Assembly: GCA_016214055.1 (NCBI GenBank)
Contig: JACRPE010000011.1
Coordinates: 793 to 64,792, forward strand
Source of the DNA: Candidatus Roizmanbacteria bacterium
Lineage (GTDB): Bacteria > Patescibacteriota > Microgenomatia > UBA1406 > GWC2-37-13
Reading direction: 5' to 3'
Length of the DNA stretch: 64,000 nucleotides
Positions 17,329-55,323 of the stretch are shown here, piece by piece. Under the pieces are notes generated by a model. That model had not been told where the DNA came from. It did no database searches and worked only from the letters and a program-made list of their open reading frames with translations. Positions within the stretch are counted from its first letter, which is position 1; each line of letters starts with the position of its first letter. A program made the position numbers and the translations under genes.

Positions 17329-17405
17329 GCCCTTGTAGCTCAATTGGATAGAGTAGTGGCTTCCGAAGCCATTGGTTGGGGGTTCAAGTCCCTCCGGGGG
17401 CACCA
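17329..17405 (+). tRNA. tRNA-Arg (anticodon CCG), CCA encoded
   Basis: Hand-folded cloverleaf: gcccttg/cgggggc acceptor, gctc/gagt D stem, gtggc-ttccgaa-gccat, ggggg-ttcaagt-ccctc, then A-CCA. Confidence 0.85.
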
Positions 17406-17426
17406 TAAACACCAGGGTTTACCCTG

Positions 17427-17462
17427 AAAATGTTTGCTAAAAAGCAAGTTAGCAAACATTTT
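17427..17462. repeat. Palindromic hairpin AAAATGTTTGCTAA-N8-TTAGCAAACATTTT (terminator-like)
   Basis: Perfect 14-bp arms. The same arms recur at 18355-18414. Confidence 0.75.
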
Positions 17463-17464
17463 TA

Positions 17465-17535
17465 GGGCCTATAGTTAAGTGGTATACCGCGTCATTCGCA
17501 TTGACGAGTCGCCGGTTCAATTCCGGCTAGGTCCA
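17465..17535 (+). tRNA. tRNA-Ala (anticodon CGC)
   Basis: gggccta/taggtcc acceptor with G3:U70, cgtca-ttcgcat-tgacg anticodon arm, gccgg-ttcaatt-ccggc T arm. The D stem is weak and the variable loop is 4 nt. Confidence 0.75.
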
Positions 17536-17622
17536 CCGTAAAAGTTGCCTCCTTTTACGGTGTAAACACCACACTGGAAATATAAATCGGCTAGATTTTG
17601 TATAATGATGAGCGTTAAAGTC

Positions 17623-17694
17623 GCGTCTGTAGCTCAGTGGTAGAGCGCTACTCTTATAAAGTAGATGTCCTTGGTCCGACCCCAAGCAGACGCA
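17623..17694 (+). tRNA. tRNA-Ile (anticodon UAU)
   Basis: gcgtctg/cagacgc acceptor, gctc-agtggta-gagc, ctact-cttataa-agtag, cttgg-tccgacc-ccaag. The T loop reads TCC rather than TTC. Confidence 0.7.
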
Positions 17695-17715
17695 CATACG
17701 GTATAATAGTCAAAT

Positions 17716-17774
17716 GCTGAGGTAGGGCTCCGAGTCGGAGCCTGGTCCCGCCGTCCGAATCGGACGGCACGGCG
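17716..17774 (+). repeat. Copy A of a tRNA-derived repeat (5' portion only)
   Basis: gctgaggta-gggctccgagtcggagcc-tggtc-ccgccgtccgaatcggacggcacggcg is nearly identical to the first ~58 nt of the element at 18247-18351, then diverges into the GIY-YIG gene leader. Confidence 0.75.
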
Positions 17775-17803
17775 AAAGGTTGTTAAGATTGTTAAAATAG
17801 AGT

Positions 17804-18058
17804 ATGTTTTTTACATATATTTTACAATCAGAAAAAGATAAGAAGCTGTATATTGGCTTTACTGATAATGTTGAAAAGAGATTGGAAGAGCATAATGAAG
17901 GTATAAATATTTCAACAAAATCACGAGCACCTTTTAAATTATTGTATTACGAAGCACTGCCAACCAAAGAAGAGGCTTTGCGAAGAGAAAACTTTTATAA
18001 GTCAGGAAGAGGACACGAAGTCATTTATAAAATTTTATTTAAATCACTACTGAGGTAG
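17804..18058 (+). CDS. Small GIY-YIG (URI-domain) nuclease family protein
   Basis: FFTYILQSEKDKKLYIGFTDNVEKRLEEHNEG..ALRRENFYKS has the GIY/YIG, R and E core motifs. Its stop codon TAG lies inside repeat copy B. Confidence 0.8.
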   Translation: MFFTYILQSEKDKKLYIGFTDNVEKRLEEHNEGINISTKSRAPFKLLYYEALPTKEEALRRENFYKSGRGHEVIYKILFKSLLR

Positions 18059-18082
18059 GGCTCCGAGTCGGAGCCTGGTCAC
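18050..18082 (+). repeat. Copy B of the tRNA-derived repeat (33 nt)
   Basis: ctgaggtagggctccgagtcggagcctggtcac is identical except 1 nt to 17717-17749 and to 18248-18280. Confidence 0.8.
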
Positions 18083-18106
18083 GGTAGTGATCACTGTAAT
18101 GTTATT

Positions 18107-18179
18107 GCTGAGGTAGCCAAGGTGGTCACGGCGGAGGTCTGAAAAACCCCAGATGTCAGTTCGACTCTGACCCTCAGCA
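18107..18179 (+). tRNA. tRNA-Phe-like (anticodon GAA), 73 nt
   Basis: gctgagg/cctcagc acceptor, gcc-aaggtggtcac-ggc D arm (3 bp), gaggt-ctgaaaa-acccc (one A-C mismatch), gtcag-ttcgact-ctgac T arm, discriminator A. Confidence 0.6.
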
Positions 18180-18246
18180 CAGCTTATATAAAACGTTCAA
18201 GAGTTATATAGGATAGAGTATAACCAAGGATTTTCGCATTATTTAG

Positions 18247-18351
18247 TCTGAGGTAGGGCTCCGAGTCGGAGCCTGGTCACGCCGTCCGAGTCGGACGGCA
18301 GGGCGGGGGTCTGAAACCCTCCGAATCGGAGGGCGACTCTGACCCTCAGCA
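18247..18351 (+). ncRNA. tRNA-like element / tRNA pseudogene whose arms are three GC-rich GANTC-centred hairpins
   Basis: It shares (t)ctgaggta...tggtcac and ...cgactctgaccctcagcac with the tRNA at 18107-18179. It carries ggctccg-agt-cggagcc, gccgtccg-agt-cggacggc and ccctccg-aat-cggaggg in place of normal D, anticodon and T-5' segments. Confidence 0.45.
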
Positions 18352-18354
18352 CTA

Positions 18355-18414
18355 AAAATGTTTGCTAATTTGTCTAAAGACAAATTAAAAGGCTTTGCTT
18401 TTAGCAAACATTTT
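18355..18414. repeat. Second copy of the AAAATGTTTGCTAA / TTAGCAAACATTTT palindrome (longer loop)
   Basis: The arms are identical to 17427-17462. The loop contains its own hairpin tttgtc-taaa-gacaaa. Confidence 0.75.
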
Positions 18415-18441
18415 CAGTGTAAACACTTAATTCAATTTTAT

Positions 18442-19299
18442 ATGGAAATCCGAGTTGCCGATCAACGCATACTTCTCTTTTCCGATCAGATTACTCCCGA
18501 GGATGCAAAAAAAAAGTCGTGGGATAAAAAGATGGACGCCTTTGACGCGGTCAGTAAAGTAACTGGCTTTTTTTCCCGCCCGAAAGATGAAGATTTTGAG
18601 CTTCTTTACCACGAACACCGCTATCAGCCTTTTTGGCATGTAGTTGCCAAGTCAAAATATGTGTATGACCGCACCGCAAAATATCAAGTTCCCGTCGCCG
18701 GACCCGAGGTAAAGTCAGTTACCTTGCAGGCGGACGATTATGAAGTATTAAATGGTCACGTGCATGTACCCGTGATGGAACACTGCAGTCAGGAGGAATC
18801 GGATGAAGTATTGGTCGACGGAGTAACCGGTAAAAATGCACCCCAACTTGCAACTTATTTATCCTTATCCCCTCAAGTCGTCGAAGGAAAACTTGAAAAA
18901 AGCGTACCACCTCAGTCTATTTTGATTCCTCCCCAAGCCCGGGTTTCCGCTATTATGAGAGAAACTCTTGCCCGGATGATAAAAGGTATTCAGGCGGATA
19001 AAATCATTGAGGAACATGTAGAGGTAACCTGTATCGATCTCTACTATCATCCTGTCTATGCTTATCAATACCGATGGATCTCAAAAAATAAAGAGGCAAT
19101 CGTGGAGATAGACGGATTGACCGGTGAGATTAGATCAGGGGCACGAGTATTTAGCGAGTATCTGGGGAAGGTCCTCGATCAAAACTTCCTTTTTGATTTA
19201 GGCGCTGATGCGGCAGGTATGCTTATACCCGGCGGCAGTATCGCGGTCAAAGTTGCAAAGCGCTATATTGAATCAAAAAGAAAAGATTCAAAAAAGTAA
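18442..19299 (+). CDS. Hypothetical protein
   Basis: Long ORF. I start it at the in-frame ATG at 18442 because the track's first 28 codons are the palindromic repeat. Confidence 0.5.
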   Translation: MEIRVADQRILLFSDQITPEDAKKKSWDKKMDAFDAVSKVTGFFSRPKDEDFELLYHEHRYQPFWHVVAKSKYVYDRTAKYQVPVAGPEVKSVTLQADDYEVLNGHVHVPVMEHCSQEESDEVLVDGVTGKNAPQLATYLSLSPQVVEGKLEKSVPPQSILIPPQARVSAIMRETLARMIKGIQADKIIEEHVEVTCIDLYYHPVYAYQYRWISKNKEAIVEIDGLTGEIRSGARVFSEYLGKVLDQNFLFDLGADAAGMLIPGGSIAVKVAKRYIESKRKDSKK

Positions 19300-29869: not shown

Positions 29870-30617
29870 TATGACGGTTTCCCTTATTATCCCCGCGTAC
29901 AACGAAGAGGTAAATATCCAAAAAGGGGTATTGGATAAAATCAGTAACTTTACCAAAGAACATCCTGAGTTTTCGGAAGTTATCATCGTGGATGACGGAT
30001 CAACAGATGATACGAAAAACCTAATTAAGAGGGAATACACGCAGAGGTTTTCTCATTTCCGGCTTATTGAAAATAATCATGCCGGAAAAGCACAAGCAAT
30101 CATAACCGGTATAAAAGAGGCAAAATCAGACATTGTGATGTTTACTGATATTGATTTGGCGACCCCGATTGAAGAAGGTGAGAAGTTACTCAATGCGCTG
30201 AAGGATACCTATGACATAGCAATCGGATCCCGCAATACCCATCGTGAAGGAGCGCCTCTGCTCCGAAAAATTATGGCGGTTGGTTTTATTTTTATCCGCA
30301 ACTCTCTCATCGGGTTAAATAATATCAAAGATACTCAATGTGGCTTTAAGGCTTTTGAAAGAAAAGCCGCCTTAAAGATCATTGATAAACTTCAGGTTTT
30401 TAATAAACAGTCCTCAATCACCGGCTCATCGGTGAAGGCGGGATTTGATTTGGAGTTTTTATTTGTGGCCATTAAGTTAGGCTATAAGATTAAAGAAATT
30501 CCCGTCACCTGGAAACACGTTGAAACGAAAAATGTAAACTTTTTCCGTGACTTTATCGATACGATGAAGGATATCCTTGCCATCAAGTACTATGACCTTA
30601 CCAAAAAGTACGATTAA
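29859..30617 (+). CDS. GT2 polyprenol-phosphate glycosyltransferase (DPM1/GtrB-like)
   Basis: VSLIIPAYNEE, VIIVDDGSTDDT, FTDIDLATP, QCGFKAF. The start is taken at MKNNM. Confidence 0.8.
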   Translation: MKNNMTVSLIIPAYNEEVNIQKGVLDKISNFTKEHPEFSEVIIVDDGSTDDTKNLIKREYTQRFSHFRLIENNHAGKAQAIITGIKEAKSDIVMFTDIDLATPIEEGEKLLNALKDTYDIAIGSRNTHREGAPLLRKIMAVGFIFIRNSLIGLNNIKDTQCGFKAFERKAALKIIDKLQVFNKQSSITGSSVKAGFDLEFLFVAIKLGYKIKEIPVTWKHVETKNVNFFRDFIDTMKDILAIKYYDLTKKYD

Positions 30618-31998
30618 AAAAATAGCCCCTCTTTTGTTCCTTTTATTGGCGGGATGCCTTGTTGTTTTCTACCAATACTTATCAATACCGAAAAATACCA
30701 CCTTCGATGAAATCGAGTTTGCAAAACTCGCCCTTCAACTGGGGAAGCAGCCTTATGCCCCCTATAGTCAGCTTGCAACCGGCCATGCGACTCTTTATTT
30801 TTATATCATTCTTTTATCTTTTAAATTATTTGGGGTGAGTCTCTTTGCTCTTCGCCTCCCTGCGGCAGTGTTCGGAATTCTGAATCCGCTTATTTTCTAT
30901 TTAATAATGAAAAAAATATTTAATCCTTCTTGTCATCCCGAACTTGTTTTGGGATCTTCAATTAATACTAAGATGCTGAAGCCAGTTCAGCATGACAACT
31001 TTTTTTTGAAATATCAACCTTTTATCCTTTCTCTTATTTTCATCACTCTTCGCTGGTACTTTAATTTTGCCCGCTTTGGATTCGAGGTAACTTTTCTACT
31101 TTTTCTTGAACTGATGTCTTTGTATTTTATGTTTAAATATACCGATGTCATCCTGAACTTGGTTCAGGATCTTAAAAAGATGCCGAAACAAGTTCGGCAT
31201 GACAAAATTTGGTTAGTTTTCTCAGGAATATTCGCCGGTCTTGCGTATAATTCCTACCAACCCGGGAGAATATTTGTTCTGATTCCATTATTTTTATTAT
31301 TAGTCAAGGGCTTCGTCATTCCCGCCCTCCGAATCGGAGGGGGAATCCAGGCTAAAATAACATCTTTAATGTATTTTTTAATTCCCTTTTTTATTCTTAT
31401 TCTTCCCCTCATCATCTATCTCAATATTCACAAGGACACCCGCTTTTACCAGCAGTTTTATCCTGATAACCACGAGATGACACTGGACGAAAAGGGTCAA
31501 TTTTTTATGCGGAATCTTTCATCTACGGCGGGTATTTTCCTTGTGAATGGAGATGTAAATGGCCGCCATAACTATCCTAATAAAGCGGCGCTTAACCCCA
31601 TGCTCGGCGTTTTATTTCTTGCAGGGTTGCTTATTGCAATAAAAAAAATTAAAGAACGGAATAATCAGTTGTTCCTCCTCTGGTTTTTTCTTTCCCTTGC
31701 CCCGACACTCGTGACTTATCCATGGGAGAATCCAAATATGCTGAGAACATTTACAGTAATTCCATCGGTTGTCTATTTTGTTGGTCTTGCGATTAAAAAA
31801 TTGAGTGATGTTTCCATACTGCAAAAACCTGCACTTAAAAATGTCTTTATAATAATGATCTTCATGCTTATCAGTGTTTCATCACTCTATGAATTACGTA
31901 CCTATTTTGTCCATCAAGCCCAAGTGTTTAAAGAAGCGTTTGAAACAGAGCGGGATCTTATCTATTATTTAAATCCTTCCGATGTACCAAAAAAATAA
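30577..31998 (+). CDS. GT-C-like membrane protein carrying three in-ORF palindromic-element insertions
   Basis: Polytopic, with TFDEIEFAKLA after TM1. The ORF stays open across M3, M4 and M5. Confidence 0.55.
   Translation: MPSSTMTLPKSTIKKIAPLLFLLLAGCLVVFYQYLSIPKNTTFDEIEFAKLALQLGKQPYAPYSQLATGHATLYFYIILLSFKLFGVSLFALRLPAAVFGILNPLIFYLIMKKIFNPSCHPELVLGSSINTKMLKPVQHDNFFLKYQPFILSLIFITLRWYFNFARFGFEVTFLLFLELMSLYFMFKYTDVILNLVQDLKKMPKQVRHDKIWLVFSGIFAGLAYNSYQPGRIFVLIPLFLLLVKGFVIPALRIGGGIQAKITSLMYFLIPFFILILPLIIYLNIHKDTRFYQQFYPDNHEMTLDEKGQFFMRNLSSTAGIFLVNGDVNGRHNYPNKAALNPMLGVLFLAGLLIAIKKIKERNNQLFLLWFFLSLAPTLVTYPWENPNMLRTFTVIPSVVYFVGLAIKKLSDVSILQKPALKNVFIIMIFMLISVSSLYELRTYFVHQAQVFKEAFETERDLIYYLNPSDVPKK
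30932..30996. mobile_element. MITE-like element M3 (inside CDS)
   Basis: GTCAT-cccgaac..ttttggg-ATC ... GAT-gctgaa..ttcagc-ATGAC, translated as CHPELVLGSSINTKMLKPVQHD. Confidence 0.65.
31147..31203. mobile_element. MITE-like element M4 (inside CDS)
   Basis: GTCAT-cctgaac-ttg-gttcagg-ATC ttaaaaa GAT-gccgaaac-aa-gttcggc-ATGAC, translated as VILNLVQDLKKMPKQVRHD. Confidence 0.7.
31315..31348. mobile_element. Half MITE-like element M5 (inside CDS) containing a GANTC hairpin
   Basis: GTCATTCCCG-ccctccgaatcggaggg-GGAATCC, translated as VIPALRIGGGIQ. Confidence 0.6.
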
Positions 31999-55260: not shown

Positions 55261-55323
55261 CTTTGCCCCTCGTAGTCCTCCGATTCGGAGGACGAAGTGG
55301 GGTGGATTTATCATTAATGGAAG

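Follow-up and report, generated by a model that had tools for sequence, protein, structure and literature searches.

A small GIY-YIG nuclease gene and a 17-bp palindrome at a tRNA-Phe gene of Candidatus Roizmanbacteria: a probable tRNA-gene-targeting selfish cassette

The question raised by this locus is why a small GIY-YIG open reading frame (ORF) lies between pieces of a tRNA gene that carry GC-rich hairpins. The DNA examined, called the window below, is a 64-kb stretch from Candidatus Roizmanbacteria, an uncultured member of the CPR, and is the only part of this genome that the analysis covered. Related loci, labelled L001 and so on, come from Microgenomates (Roizmanbacteria and Woesebacteria) and from metagenomes. 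GIY-YIG loci were sampled without tRNA bias, 16 by peptide patterns in species-representative genomes and 6 by exact-protein look-ups, and a survey of tRNA-Phe covered 79 non-redundant loci with adequate flanks. The following features make up the locus in the window:

17329-17405, + strand: tRNA-Arg(CCG) of the upstream array, called by ARAGORN and Rfam
17465-17537, + strand: tRNA-Ala(CGC) of the upstream array, called by ARAGORN and Rfam
17623-17695, + strand: tRNA-Ile(TAT) of the upstream array, called by ARAGORN and Rfam
17702-17707, + strand: TATAAT box read from the sequence, 8 nt 5' of copy A
17716-17774, + strand: copy A, displaced 5' part of tRNA-Phe, 59 nt, from alignment to the tRNA
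17804-18058, + strand: GIY-YIG ORF, 84 aa, PF01541
18049-18084, + strand: copy B, second 5' fragment of tRNA-Phe, overlapping the 3' end of the ORF, from alignment to the tRNA
18107-18179, + strand: intact tRNA-Phe(GAA), called by ARAGORN and Rfam (gathering score 29), CCA not encoded
18247-18351, + strand: hairpin-stuffed pseudo-tRNA-Phe of 105 nt, from alignment to the tRNA and from its fold
18350-18427, + strand: tRNA-trailer hairpin, an inverted repeat with arms at 18350-18368 and 18401-18419, then GTAAACAC

The original prediction had given the order tRNA-Ile, copy A, GIY-YIG ORF, copy B, tRNA-Phe, spacer and 105-nt element, and both the order and the coordinates proved correct. Its tRNA-Phe-like gene is a genuine one (57.2 bits in Rfam), and the sequence that it described as common to copies A and B and the last element is a 31-nt repeat, CTGAGGTAGGGCTCCGAGTCGGAGCCTGGTC. 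When this motif was counted, as had been foreseen, exactly three copies were found on the + strand (17717, 18050 and 18248), all within 640 nt and none elsewhere in the 64 kb, where shuffles expect 0. Alignment also agrees with the predicted nature of the repeat, which is the 5' region of tRNA-Phe with a 17-nt hairpin in place of the D-loop bases CCAAGG. Copy A consists of tRNA positions 1-10, hairpin H1 (17726-17742), TGGTC, hairpin H2 (17750-17768) and ACGGCG through about position 27, and copy B of positions (1)2-10, H1 (18059-18075) and TGGTCACGG; the stop codon TAG of the ORF (18056-18058) lies within copy B and corresponds to tRNA-like positions 8-10. The 105-nt element, separated from tRNA-Phe by a spacer of 67 nt, contains three GC-rich hairpins. 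It is composed of positions (1)2-10, H1 (18257-18273), TGGTCACG, H2 (18281-18299), the 5' strand of the anticodon stem with the loop up to GAAA, H3 (18317-18333) and tRNA positions 56-73, the tRNA 3' end being kept as CGACTCTGACCCTCAGCA. Stem-loops that are GC-rich and perfect over 7 bp or more number only 18 in the window, and six of them fall within the 640 nt of the locus, a concentration not due to chance. Rfam at the gathering threshold detected five tRNAs and nothing else in the whole window, and at E<10 over the locus it gave no family for copies A or B or the 105-nt element and no ribozyme or tracrRNA beyond noise.

The upstream tRNAs (61-69 bits in Rfam) provide a conserved context, since the order Arg-Ala-Ile-(cassette)-Phe is found also in L001, L003, L008, L025, L027 and L028. 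Copy A starts 19 nt after tRNA-Ile and occupies the place of the intact tRNA-Phe start at empty sites; the 19 nt fall in the range of 2-91 nt measured for the spacer before tRNA-Phe where other lineages lack the cassette. The TATAAT at 17702 is possibly the -10 element of the original tRNA-Phe promoter, judging from its position, and the same hexamer was present in the spacer from tRNA-Ile to tRNA-Phe (or pseudo-copy) at 9 of the 30 junctions listed. A generic sigma-70 scan did not call it, and promoter and terminator scans gave sites no commoner than in shuffled sequence. The trailer hairpin at 18350 probably shows where the tRNA-Phe gene originally ended on its 3' side. Its arm sequence recurs 3' of tRNA-Arg (17422-17467), and a different hairpin followed by GTAAAC is found 3' of tRNA-Ala and also 3' of tRNA-Phe in L122, L138 and L100. 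An ancestral tRNA-Phe gene would be placed between the TATAAT and the trailer hairpin; copy A would be its displaced 5' end and the 3' part of the 105-nt element its displaced 3' end, with the ORF, copy B and the working tRNA-Phe nested between them. The whole architecture is common to the window and L001 by descent, including copy B, which is missing in L003, L015, L017, L018, L026 and L047, where the ORF continues directly into the intact tRNA. The D-arm and anticodon-arm pattern of this intact tRNA-Phe is common to more than 120 metagenome loci.

The ORF product matches PF01541 (GIY-YIG) over residues 1-67 of 84 with E=1.3e-18 and 67.5 bits against a cut-off of 22.6 bits. A profile search of solved structures gave 1zg2 (BH0048; E=6e-13) as the best match, with 1ywl (EF2693; 1e-10) and SLX1 (8e-5) also found, and the intron-endonuclease model TIGR01453 scored 20.8 bits against a cut-off of 56 bits. 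By these profiles the protein is assigned to the UPF0213/SLX1-like clade of the GIY-YIG superfamily, with the catalytic domain only. The catalytic set of GIY-YIG enzymes comprises the Tyr of ‘GIY’, the Tyr and Gly of ‘YIG’, a downstream Arg, a metal-binding Glu and an Asn; residues invariant across 28 homologues are Y5, Y16, G18, R26, H30, E62 and K66. No separate DNA-binding or targeting domain was found in the 84 aa, most of the listed relatives have 80-130 aa, and to our knowledge every characterised GIY-YIG homing endonuclease has a DNA-binding domain. A phage origin of the ORF was rejected, as the PHROG search gave no match and the IMG/VR viral contigs searched held no relative. With dN/dS of 0.09-0.14 (0.086/0.906 against L001 and 0.083/0.602 against L015), the ORF is under purifying selection. 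The single-domain UPF0213-type family comprises 6,910 clusters (50% identity, E<=1e-3), and we know of no established function for it, nor did the literature searches yield one. These proteins, which have the same size and single-domain architecture as the cassette protein, have been grouped with eukaryotic SLX1 in the ‘Slx1 cluster’ (Dunin-Horkawicz et al., 2006; PMC1564403). Literature searches on YhbQ/UPF0213 with GIY-YIG found no link of the family to tRNA genes. SLX1 acts with SLX4 on branched DNA, whereas a role for the cassette protein is suggested by genomic context and not by biochemistry.

This context recurs in relatives. The ORF adjoins an intact tRNA or a partial tRNA copy at all 16 peptide-pattern loci and in all 6 exact-protein look-ups. 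Small (about 84 aa) catalytic-domain-only GIY-YIG ORFs in Microgenomates lie flush with an intact tRNA, and the ORF and each tRNA that it abuts point in the same direction. Where the ORF comes first (Type I, 8 cassettes), its stop codon is U8-A9-G10 of the tRNA, and 9 nt separate the tRNA start from the end of this codon; where the tRNA comes first (at least 12 cassettes), the called tRNA end is about 1-4 nt before the ORF start, a distance affected by the fact that the HMM-defined start may lie one codon inside the ORF. On the opposite flank the same tRNA recurs as a partial copy that a 17-bp palindrome interrupts. A partial copy with a GC hairpin accompanies tRNA-Phe, Gly, Lys-CTT, Lys-TTT, Leu, His and Ser; the contig of the Val cassette stops inside the hairpin, and in the Arg and Cys cassettes the partial copies are weaker and their tRNA matches short. 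Relatives of the ORF are found beside about ten tRNA species. Depending on the lineage, the ORF precedes or follows tRNA-Phe, at least five copies at different tRNAs are found on the single contig of L074, and L150 and L155 have an identical protein in different upstream contexts. Turnover is also indicated by tandem cassettes (L024), a frameshifted ORF (L025), an ORF remnant (L079) and partial copies without the ORF (L078, L087 and L103).

Empty sites are frequent: in a comparison between lineages, both the GIY-YIG ORF and a partial copy are lacking at 57 of the 79 tRNA-Phe loci, and an empty Ile-Phe-Gly arrangement is seen in L118, L098, L065, L071 and L123. The empty sites belong to other lineages, and no closely related filled and empty strain pair was found. 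The original prediction had considered that the repeats might be ordinary tRNA leaders present without the nuclease. Because of the 57 empty loci and the roughly ten tRNA species at which ORF relatives occur, the repeats are not ordinary leaders. Partial tRNA-Phe copies are weakly associated with the presence of an ORF (p=0.04), as several of the ORFs nearby go with the adjacent tRNA-Gly. Breakpoints of the partial copies are concentrated at D-arm positions 17-28, duplications affect the 5' half or the D-arm as often as the 3' end, and the inserted unit is usually about 300-350 bp. The 3' segments of partial copies agree with their own tRNA at 29-32 of 32 positions and with tRNAs of other lineages at 20-30 of 32; the partial copies track their own tRNA in concerted evolution. 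Accordingly, one part of the original prediction, that a nuclease cassette was inserted into the tRNA-Phe locus between tRNA-Phe-derived direct repeats, is retained, while the other part, a tRNA-derived SINE-like family, is abandoned: sequence derived from a tRNA stays strictly local and in every relative matches the tRNA next to it, as the confinement of the 31-nt motif illustrates for the window.

We consider it probable, at roughly 0.6, that this is a selfish, SegB-like nuclease cassette aimed at tRNA genes, in which part of the target is duplicated and one working tRNA is thereby preserved. The tRNA-Phe gene would have been colonised by a miniature cassette composed of a gene for the 84-aa nuclease and a 17-bp GC-rich palindrome. 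The nuclease may cut tRNA-gene DNA at a conserved tRNA motif, as suggested by the breakpoints in the D-arm, and the break would be repaired from a cassette-bearing allele. The cassette would bring a duplicate of the displaced tRNA segment, and therefore one functional tRNA would always survive, as in tRNA-integrating islands. Expression of the ORF presumably rides on transcription of the tRNA operon and on processing by RNase P and RNase Z. Classical homing does not yield target duplication, and the intact tRNA in cassette-bearing alleles would stay a target unless recognition extends into the flanks.

A close parallel is SegB. SegB is a larger, multi-domain protein, whereas the cassette protein has 84 aa and the catalytic domain only. 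In phage T4, SegB is a GIY-YIG homing endonuclease encoded in a tRNA cluster and recognises a conserved motif of the tRNA T-arm (PMC2330249); the gene in T4 and T6 is free-standing among tRNA genes, as in the cassette. SegB drives segmental amplification of tRNA together with segB by way of microhomology that the 5' end of the tRNA shares with the 3' end of segB, giving tandem repeats (PMC13096335); in a similar way the 3' end of the cassette ORF coincides with tRNA positions 1-10, and L024 contains a tandem unit. The empty tRNA-Phe loci likewise resemble homing-type presence/absence polymorphism at a conserved site, between lineages only. SegB is however phage-borne and belongs to the phage Seg/I-TevI clade, whereas the cassette protein is on a CPR chromosome and in the UPF0213/SLX1 clade; furthermore, the cassette is precisely flush with tRNA ends and always comes with a partial copy of a tRNA and with a conserved palindrome, a combination not described for SegB. 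Searches of the literature (GIY-YIG with tRNA, CPR or Patescibacteria; UPF0213/YhbQ; palindromes of Microgenomates) found nothing relevant except the SegB papers, and this nuclease-palindrome design at tRNA genes looks like a kind of selfish element without prior description in the literature searched.

The palindrome is the second part of the proposed cassette. Its core, CCGA-N-TCGG, varies little while the outer stem pairs covary: four pairs have compensatory changes in 13 cells and none of 500 shuffles reached the score, in a hand-assembled alignment that favours paired examples. On the sense strand, G-T pairs are present and A-C mismatches are essentially absent. In 144 kb searched, 31 of the 37 matches to the hairpin core are within 400 nt of a GIY-YIG ORF. 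The hairpin type goes with the nuclease clade and not with the genome or the tRNA, both types being found in L028 and the Phe-type core in Lys cassettes. Thus, the original prediction was right that a hairpin is inserted in a tRNA copy, but it is more than a mere insert, as the palindrome travels with the nuclease clade. Two other origins of the hairpin were rejected: a P-nucleotide-like repair scar templated by the flanks, because on inspection the hairpin is unrelated to flanking tRNA bases and is common to Phe and Lys cassettes; and a Shine-Dalgarno element, as its GGAGG is 13-96 nt from the ATG or 3' of the ORF. In the tRNA-targeting cassette, the palindromes might destroy the nuclease target in displaced copies, might split the repeats and so prevent deletion of the cassette, or might be the nuclease's own binding site; all three are speculative.

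Eight core matches were found in the 64 kb, six at the locus and these two elsewhere:

31325-31341, + strand: dispersed palindrome CCCTCCGAATCGGAGGG, in frame inside a GT39-type glycosyltransferase gene
55276-55292, no strand assigned: dispersed palindrome TCCTCCGATTCGGAGGA, intergenic

These copies invite an alternative in which the palindromes themselves are miniature mobile elements that enter hairpin loops of DNA and are mobilised in trans by the SLX1-like GIY-YIG protein in a RAYT-like manner, with the partial tRNA copies as by-products of nuclease breaks, which collect palindromes because they are dispensable. The glycosyltransferase copy, 13 kb from the locus, is consistent with this, lying in the loop of a larger palindrome whose homologous site in L160 has only the outer palindrome and no 17-mer. 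In addition, an insertion of 17 bp with an apparent 4-bp duplication is seen three times (CAAG in L017 and L018, CACG/CAGG at H2 of the window), the window and L001 have H2 whereas L015 and L003 lack it, a whole tRNA-Phe is at the centre of such a palindrome in L116, and the covariation of hairpin type with nuclease clade and the structure-specific SLX1 nucleases as closest solved relatives fit as well. With six copies at the nuclease gene and two dispersed in the 64 kb covered, this short GC-rich palindrome may resemble those of REP/RAYT systems (REPtrons), and its in-frame copy in a protein gene is like those of Rickettsia palindromic elements (RPE). The enzyme of REPtrons is however an HUH/Y1 (RAYT) transposase and not a GIY-YIG protein, and the cassette palindrome differs from both in having only 17 bp and in lying mostly inside tRNA pseudo-copies. 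Against palindrome mobility, the two dispersed copies are the only ones outside the locus in 64 kb, several hairpins (H1, H3 and the anticodon-arm type) replace tRNA segments of about equal length without duplication, and the flush ends of ORF and tRNA are left unexplained. DNA transposition by a bacterial GIY-YIG enzyme is not known to us, and we regard this alternative as unlikely. A combination with the tRNA-targeting cassette is possible, although we put it forward tentatively and with considerable doubt: a two-part mobile element of a minimal SLX1-like GIY-YIG protein and a 17-bp palindrome that it recognises or mobilises, which would enter tRNA genes by homing, through cleavage of DNA that forms hairpins or of the conserved D-arm, and would bring a replacement tRNA segment or whole copy, making the host dependent on the invaded allele, while palindromes would also spread alone into hairpin loops, including in frame into protein genes.

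An explanation without mobility is that the ORF is a domesticated UPF0213 housekeeping gene expressed from tRNA operons, whose hairpin-bearing partial tRNA copies serve as functional UTRs with signals for RNA processing or stability. This is favoured by purifying selection on the ORF, which is strong, by conservation of the Arg-Ala-Ile-(ORF)-Phe order with BacA nearby in both Roizmanbacteria and Woesebacteria, and by the pairing of the stems on the sense strand. Relative to L001, partial copies and hairpins are kept beyond neutral expectation and the spacers are not, and the L001 counterpart of copy A is largely conserved although the synonymous divergence of the ORF is about 0.9; this could mean a function at the host or RNA level. 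An ATG 1-4 nt past a CCA-less tRNA would also give a leaderless mRNA after 3' processing. A housekeeping gene would hardly be missing at 57 of 79 tRNA-Phe loci, however, nor be present in five or more copies at different tRNAs of the L074 contig, on different sides of the same tRNA among lineages, or as tandem, frameshifted and remnant copies. In the Type I arrangement RNase P cleavage would remove the stop codon, and a UTR role needs no copies of the neighbouring tRNA. We hold this explanation to be quite improbable.

The 105-nt element might alone be kept for the host as a functional tRNA-like RNA, for example a decoy or regulator, with its arms replaced by stable hairpins. Its single strand folds into three strong hairpins (-58.9 kcal/mol, z=-3.9) whose stems covary, and the orthologue in L001 keeps H1 and H3 at the same junctions with H2 missing. 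Neither ARAGORN nor Rfam at E<10 called a tRNA at 18247-18351; the element has no intact cloverleaf, with its first acceptor pair mismatched and the 5' strand of the T-stem lost, H3 being in its place. Moreover, the acceptor mismatch differs (T1 opposite C72 in the window, A6 opposite C67 in L001), no Rfam family matches, shortened versions of the same design occur in L019, L022, L035 and L087, and most tRNA-Phe loci lack the element; such a function is very improbable.

Partial tRNA duplications around inserted DNA are a hallmark of tRNA-targeting integrative elements, which resemble the cassette in leaving one intact tRNA and a displaced partial copy as direct repeats in an essential, conserved gene, but that the copies are attachment-site scars of integrase-mediated islands or prophages in tRNA-Phe with the ORF as incidental cargo is scarcely credible, even with the 2 kb of extra ORFs between nuclease ORF and tRNA-Phe in L008, as such elements need a tyrosine or serine recombinase whereas Pfam scans found no integrase, transposase or recombinase among predicted genes between 12.9 and 24.3 kb of the window, where all families detected are housekeeping ones (phosphoribosyltransferase, amine oxidase, RmlD, cupin, NUDIX, EamA, BacA and GT1), and no recombinase family among genes called at the loci of exact-protein relatives, and as the cassette is only about 0.3 kb, duplicates the 5' half or D-arm also, has its displaced copy broken by a palindrome and has its ORF flush with the tRNA in both configurations.

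For the orphan UPF0213 family, the layout of these loci suggests a definite role, that of selfish cassettes directed at tRNA genes, and the two-part element, if true, would be the first biological role for this large family. The tRNA-targeting cassette would represent a way of invading an essential gene without splicing or an integrase, in which part of the target is duplicated and the spare piece is capped by a palindrome. For annotation, it accounts for pseudo-tRNAs, odd tRNA calls and tRNA-overlapping ORFs in CPR genomes. With its 84 aa and a defined palindromic partner of 17 bp, the nuclease could also be useful as a minimal site- or structure-specific enzyme.

The layout given for this locus in the original prediction was exact, and the positions obtained from ARAGORN, Rfam, and the ORF and repeat searches agree with it. 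The features are as follows.

17329-17695: tRNA-Arg, tRNA-Ala and tRNA-Ile (ARAGORN and Rfam)
17716-17774: copy A, partial 5' copy of tRNA-Phe
17804-18058: GIY-YIG ORF, 84 aa (PF01541, E=1.3e-18)
18049-18084: copy B, partial 5' copy of tRNA-Phe
18107-18179: tRNA-Phe(GAA), good (ARAGORN and Rfam, 57.2 bits)
18247-18351: the element, a 105-nt hairpin-bearing pseudo-tRNA-Phe

The repeat proposed to be shared by copy A, copy B and the last element is borne out by a 31-mer, CTGAGGTAGGGCTCCGAGTCGGAGCCTGGTC, which occurs exactly three times in the 64 kb searched (17717, 18050 and 18248), at this locus only and with none expected by chance. On alignment to the tRNA, all three open with tRNA-Phe positions 1(2)-10; next, in place of the D-loop bases CCAAGG, comes a 17-nt hairpin (H1, GGCTCCGAGTCGGAGCC), the D loop being where the original prediction had set an inserted hairpin, and the copies pick up again with TGGTCACGG. 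A second hairpin (H2, CCGTCCGARTCGGACGG) is present in copy A and the element, and a third (H3, CCCTCCGAATCGGAGGG) takes the place of tRNA positions 38-55 in the element, whose 3' terminus is tRNA-Phe's own 3' end. The window contains just 18 perfect stem-loops that are GC-rich and 7 bp or longer, six of them within the 640-nt locus. The ORF listed downstream at 18358-19299 starts, as listed, within the trailer hairpin and probably begins at the ATG near 18443 (MEIRVADQ...); its protein had no Pfam match.

Related loci (L numbers) were retrieved without presupposing a tRNA, by exact-protein look-ups and a peptide-pattern scan using one genome per species. The ORF had an intact tRNA, or a partial copy of one, as its neighbour at all 16 scan loci and in all six homologue look-ups, and the orientation of ORF and tRNA was always the same. 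In Type I (the window, L001, L003, L015, L017, L018, L026 and L047), the order is tRNA 1-15, hairpin, tRNA 12-26, spacer, ORF and intact tRNA, with the ORF 3' end inside the tRNA; because tRNA U8-A9-G10 serves as the stop codon, as it does in eight cassettes, the C-termini read ...LPR or ...LLR. L008 has a Type I-like upstream partial copy, yet other ORFs, spanning 2 kb, lie between its GIY-YIG ORF and tRNA-Phe. In Type II, the intact tRNA is followed by the ORF, with its ATG about 1-4 nt past the tRNA end as called, and then by a partial copy composed of 19-28, hairpin and 42-76 (L024, L025, L027, L028, L029 and L063) or of 26-37, hairpin and 56-76 (L022 and L035); the downstream array of L020, also Type II, is more complex. 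Clear partial copies of the adjoining tRNA with a GC-rich hairpin were also found for tRNA-Lys(CTT) (L021), Lys(TTT) (L023 and L158), Gly (L028, L064, L067, L086 and L135), Leu and His (L074), and Ser (L159). At tRNA-Val (L093) the contig end falls inside the hairpin, and at tRNA-Arg (L074) and Cys (L051/L076) the upstream tRNA matches are short and less clear. The L074 contig carries at least five GIY-YIG ORFs with different tRNAs. Both L074 (about 6.2-8.6 kb, each ORF oriented forward) and L105 contain a dense tRNA array, in which ORFs abut Leu, His, Arg, Lys and Gly genes; the 'tRNA-Pyl(CTA)' called there by ARAGORN is probably a pseudo-tRNA.

Hairpin and cassette go together. Of the 37 matches to the hairpin core in 144 kb of non-redundant loci, 31 are no more than 400 nt from a GIY-YIG ORF. 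The nuclease clade of P0001-like proteins nearly always has the core CCGA-N-TCGG, at tRNA-Phe and Lys alike, and the Gly- and Val-associated clades have CCCGCC-N(2-4)-GGCGGG; L028 has a cassette of either kind, and the hairpin types differ accordingly. Among 18 distinct 17-mers, a set put together by hand that favours paired examples, compensatory changes occur at the four outer stem pairs, in 13 cells, a level reached in 0 of 500 shuffles, and the inner core varies little. Interior stem mismatches on the sense strand are G-T, not A-C, which hints weakly that this strand may pair as RNA or single-stranded DNA. Comparison of the window with L001 (dS about 0.9) shows partial copies and hairpins to be largely conserved, with a compensatory C-G to G-C switch in H2, whereas the spacers cannot be aligned. 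In the 3' segments of partial copies, 29-32 of 32 positions agree with their own tRNA, as against 20-30 of 32 with the tRNA of other lineages, and thus the partial copies evolve in concert with the tRNA.

Palindromes were also found away from the cassette. The 17-mer CCCTCCGAATCGGAGGG lies in frame within a GT39/PMT_2-type glycosyltransferase gene (30589-31998, + strand, especially 31318-31350), inside the loop of a longer palindrome, GTCATTCCCG...GGAATCCAG; in the homologue L160 that longer palindrome lacks the 17-mer. The encoded protein has 468 aa versus 408-436 aa in its closest homologues, with three in-frame insertions including the 17-mer, an arrangement reminiscent of Rickettsia palindromic elements in coding sequence. 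A further copy is intergenic at 55276. These dispersed and in-frame copies, together with 4-bp duplications and the covariation of hairpin type with nuclease clade, support a REPtron-like system, in which it is the palindrome that moves, with help from the nuclease. L017, L018 and H2 of the window do resemble 17-bp insertions with a 4-bp duplication, and other hairpins stand in for tRNA segments of similar length. The flush tRNA junctions are left unexplained by such a system, and we consider it unlikely, if the best placed of the rivals.

Other hairpin-bearing or palindromic regions were observed. The strains L003/L006/L007 and L005 have identical cassettes and diverge about 230 nt upstream of the ORF, precisely where another palindromic element, GTCATTCTGGCAAGTCCTCCGATTTGGAGGCGCGTCCAGAATC, has its edge, which suggests that such elements may be recombination breakpoints. 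A tRNA-Ser(UGA)-like sequence at 12650-12756 (+ strand) has a D-arm hairpin, GCCCCGCCAGCAGGCGGGGC, at 12665-12684; the ARAGORN tRNA-Ser (12674-12756) begins inside this hairpin and omits the upstream 5' part. It is below the Rfam tRNA threshold, its sole Rfam match being tRNA-Sec (31.9 bits), has no GIY-YIG ORF nearby, and can be read in two ways, as another pseudo-tRNA stuffed with a hairpin or as a functional tRNA of a very unusual kind. Just upstream, 12400-12650 is GC-rich, with a 9-bp hairpin (12484-12506), short overlapping ORFs only and no Rfam match.

The 84-aa protein is a catalytic domain alone, with Y5, Y16, G18, R26, H30 and E62 invariant in 28 homologues. Its nearest homologues are named Candidatus Roizmanbacteria, Woesebacteria or 'Patescibacteria group', which places the genome in the CPR, among the Microgenomates. 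The best solved-structure matches are the UPF0213 proteins BH0048 (1zg2) and EF2693 (1ywl), followed by SLX1. Its score for group I intron endonucleases fell short of that model's cut-off, and it matched no phage protein family. The wider family comprises 6,910 clusters (50% identity, E<=1e-3), with members among the matches listed mostly of 80-130 aa. Some relatives of 205-214 aa (P0190 and P0196) match the query in two separate stretches and may be fused tandem cassettes. Since dN/dS is 0.086/0.906 against the L001 orthologue and 0.083/0.602 against that of L015, the ORF is under purifying selection.

Metagenome contigs were scanned for the Microgenomates tRNA-Phe core, a survey unbiased as to the nuclease that gave 120 loci, 79 of them non-redundant with at least 300 nt of flank on each side. 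The original prediction had called for a presence/absence comparison, and the cassette is indeed variable, with neither ORF nor partial tRNA-Phe copy at 57 of the 79 loci; a closely related filled/empty pair was not found among the loci compared. An ORF lay within 500 nt at 11 loci, and 11 had partial copies without an ORF. Three ORFs abut tRNA-Phe (L035, L047 and L063), all with partial tRNA-Phe copies, and the remaining nearby ORFs mostly adjoin a neighbouring tRNA-Gly. Turnover is indicated by the tandem cassettes of L024, by the frameshifted ORF of L025 and the ORF remnant of L079, by partial copies without an ORF (L078, L087 and L103), and by one identical protein that has different upstream contexts in L150 and L155. 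If the gene were domesticated and its UTRs functional, conservation would be expected, but not this patchy, multi-site, duplicated and decaying distribution; such a reading is less likely still than the REPtron-like one.

In empty loci, tRNA-Ile is followed by a 2-91 nt gap, often containing TATAAT, and then by intact tRNA-Phe; in the window, L001 and L015, copy A occupies that position. A hairpin-plus-GTAAAC trailer follows the window element, with an identical arm sequence also 3' of tRNA-Arg. Trailers of a comparable kind are found after tRNA-Ala and, in empty loci, after tRNA-Phe; the window's intact tRNA-Phe has none. From position and trailer, copy A would be the displaced 5' end of the original tRNA-Phe and the 3' part of the element its displaced 3' end, and the ORF, copy B and working tRNA-Phe can be read as nested between them. 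L116 (490-650; locus reversed, tRNA-Phe forward), read in the same way, is an extreme case: an intact tRNA-Phe allele (GCTGGGA...) lies between hairpin halves CCCGCCGAAAATTT ... CAAATTTAGGCGGG of an H3 belonging to a different, disrupted allele (GCAGAGG...CCTCTGC). This 1.1-kb contig has no GIY-YIG ORF.

Other structures were seen 3' of tRNA genes. A hairpin followed by GTAAAC(AC) occurs at window 17406-17464, 17538-17572 and 18352-18427 and in L122, L138, L100 and L066, with the arms AAAATGTTTGCTAA/TTAGCAAACATTTT used after tRNA-Arg and again after the pseudo-tRNA element; its role may be that of a tRNA trailer, processing signal or terminator particular to this lineage. In L087, at least two tandem units (25-nt spacer, tRNA 26-37, TCCGCCAAATCGGCGGA, tRNA 56-74) lie downstream of tRNA-Phe and run to the contig end without a GIY-YIG ORF. 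A non-coding insert of about 110 nt after tRNA-Phe, conserved in three lineages (L003 3345-3460, L066 and L119) and terminating in an 18-nt duplicate of the tRNA 3' end, GATTCACGCCCTCAGCAC, may be a different small element or small-RNA gene.

Taking anatomy, distribution, ORF selection and concerted evolution as observed, we infer that the nuclease targets tRNA-gene DNA; for Phe, Gly, Lys and Leu, most breakpoints of the partial copies fall together in the D arm, at positions 17-28. The cassette would spread by break-induced recombination with its tRNA-derived flanks as homology arms, and since the displaced segment is duplicated on the cassette, one intact tRNA would always be restored. Expression would depend on the tRNA operon: the Type II mRNA would be nearly leaderless once the CCA-less tRNA is 3'-processed, and in Type I, RNase P cleavage would remove the stop codon and keep the nuclease level low. 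More speculatively, the palindrome might make the displaced copy immune to cutting, break the repeats up into pieces too short to support deletion, render some deletion products lethal, or serve as the site that the nuclease binds or cuts. That the element is instead a functional tRNA-like RNA is very improbable, as its acceptor stem is disrupted in both the window and L001, at different positions, and half of its T stem is missing. Least probable, and all but excluded, are integrase scars, given the unit size of 0.3 kb and no recombinase among the neighbouring genes scanned.

A precedent for a GIY-YIG nuclease gene amid tRNA genes is T4 SegB, a homing endonuclease in a tRNA cluster whose 27-bp site includes an 11-bp conserved T-arm motif (PMC2330249). 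SegB drives tandem amplification of tRNA plus segB by way of microhomology that the 5' end of the tRNA shares with the 3' end of segB (PMC13096335). In a full-text literature search, no description of the present GIY-YIG/tRNA/palindrome arrangement was found. The cassette appears to act like a free-standing homing endonuclease and tRNA-targeting integration combined; unlike the former its protein has no DNA-binding domain, unlike the latter it has no recombinase, and the conserved palindrome is its addition to both.
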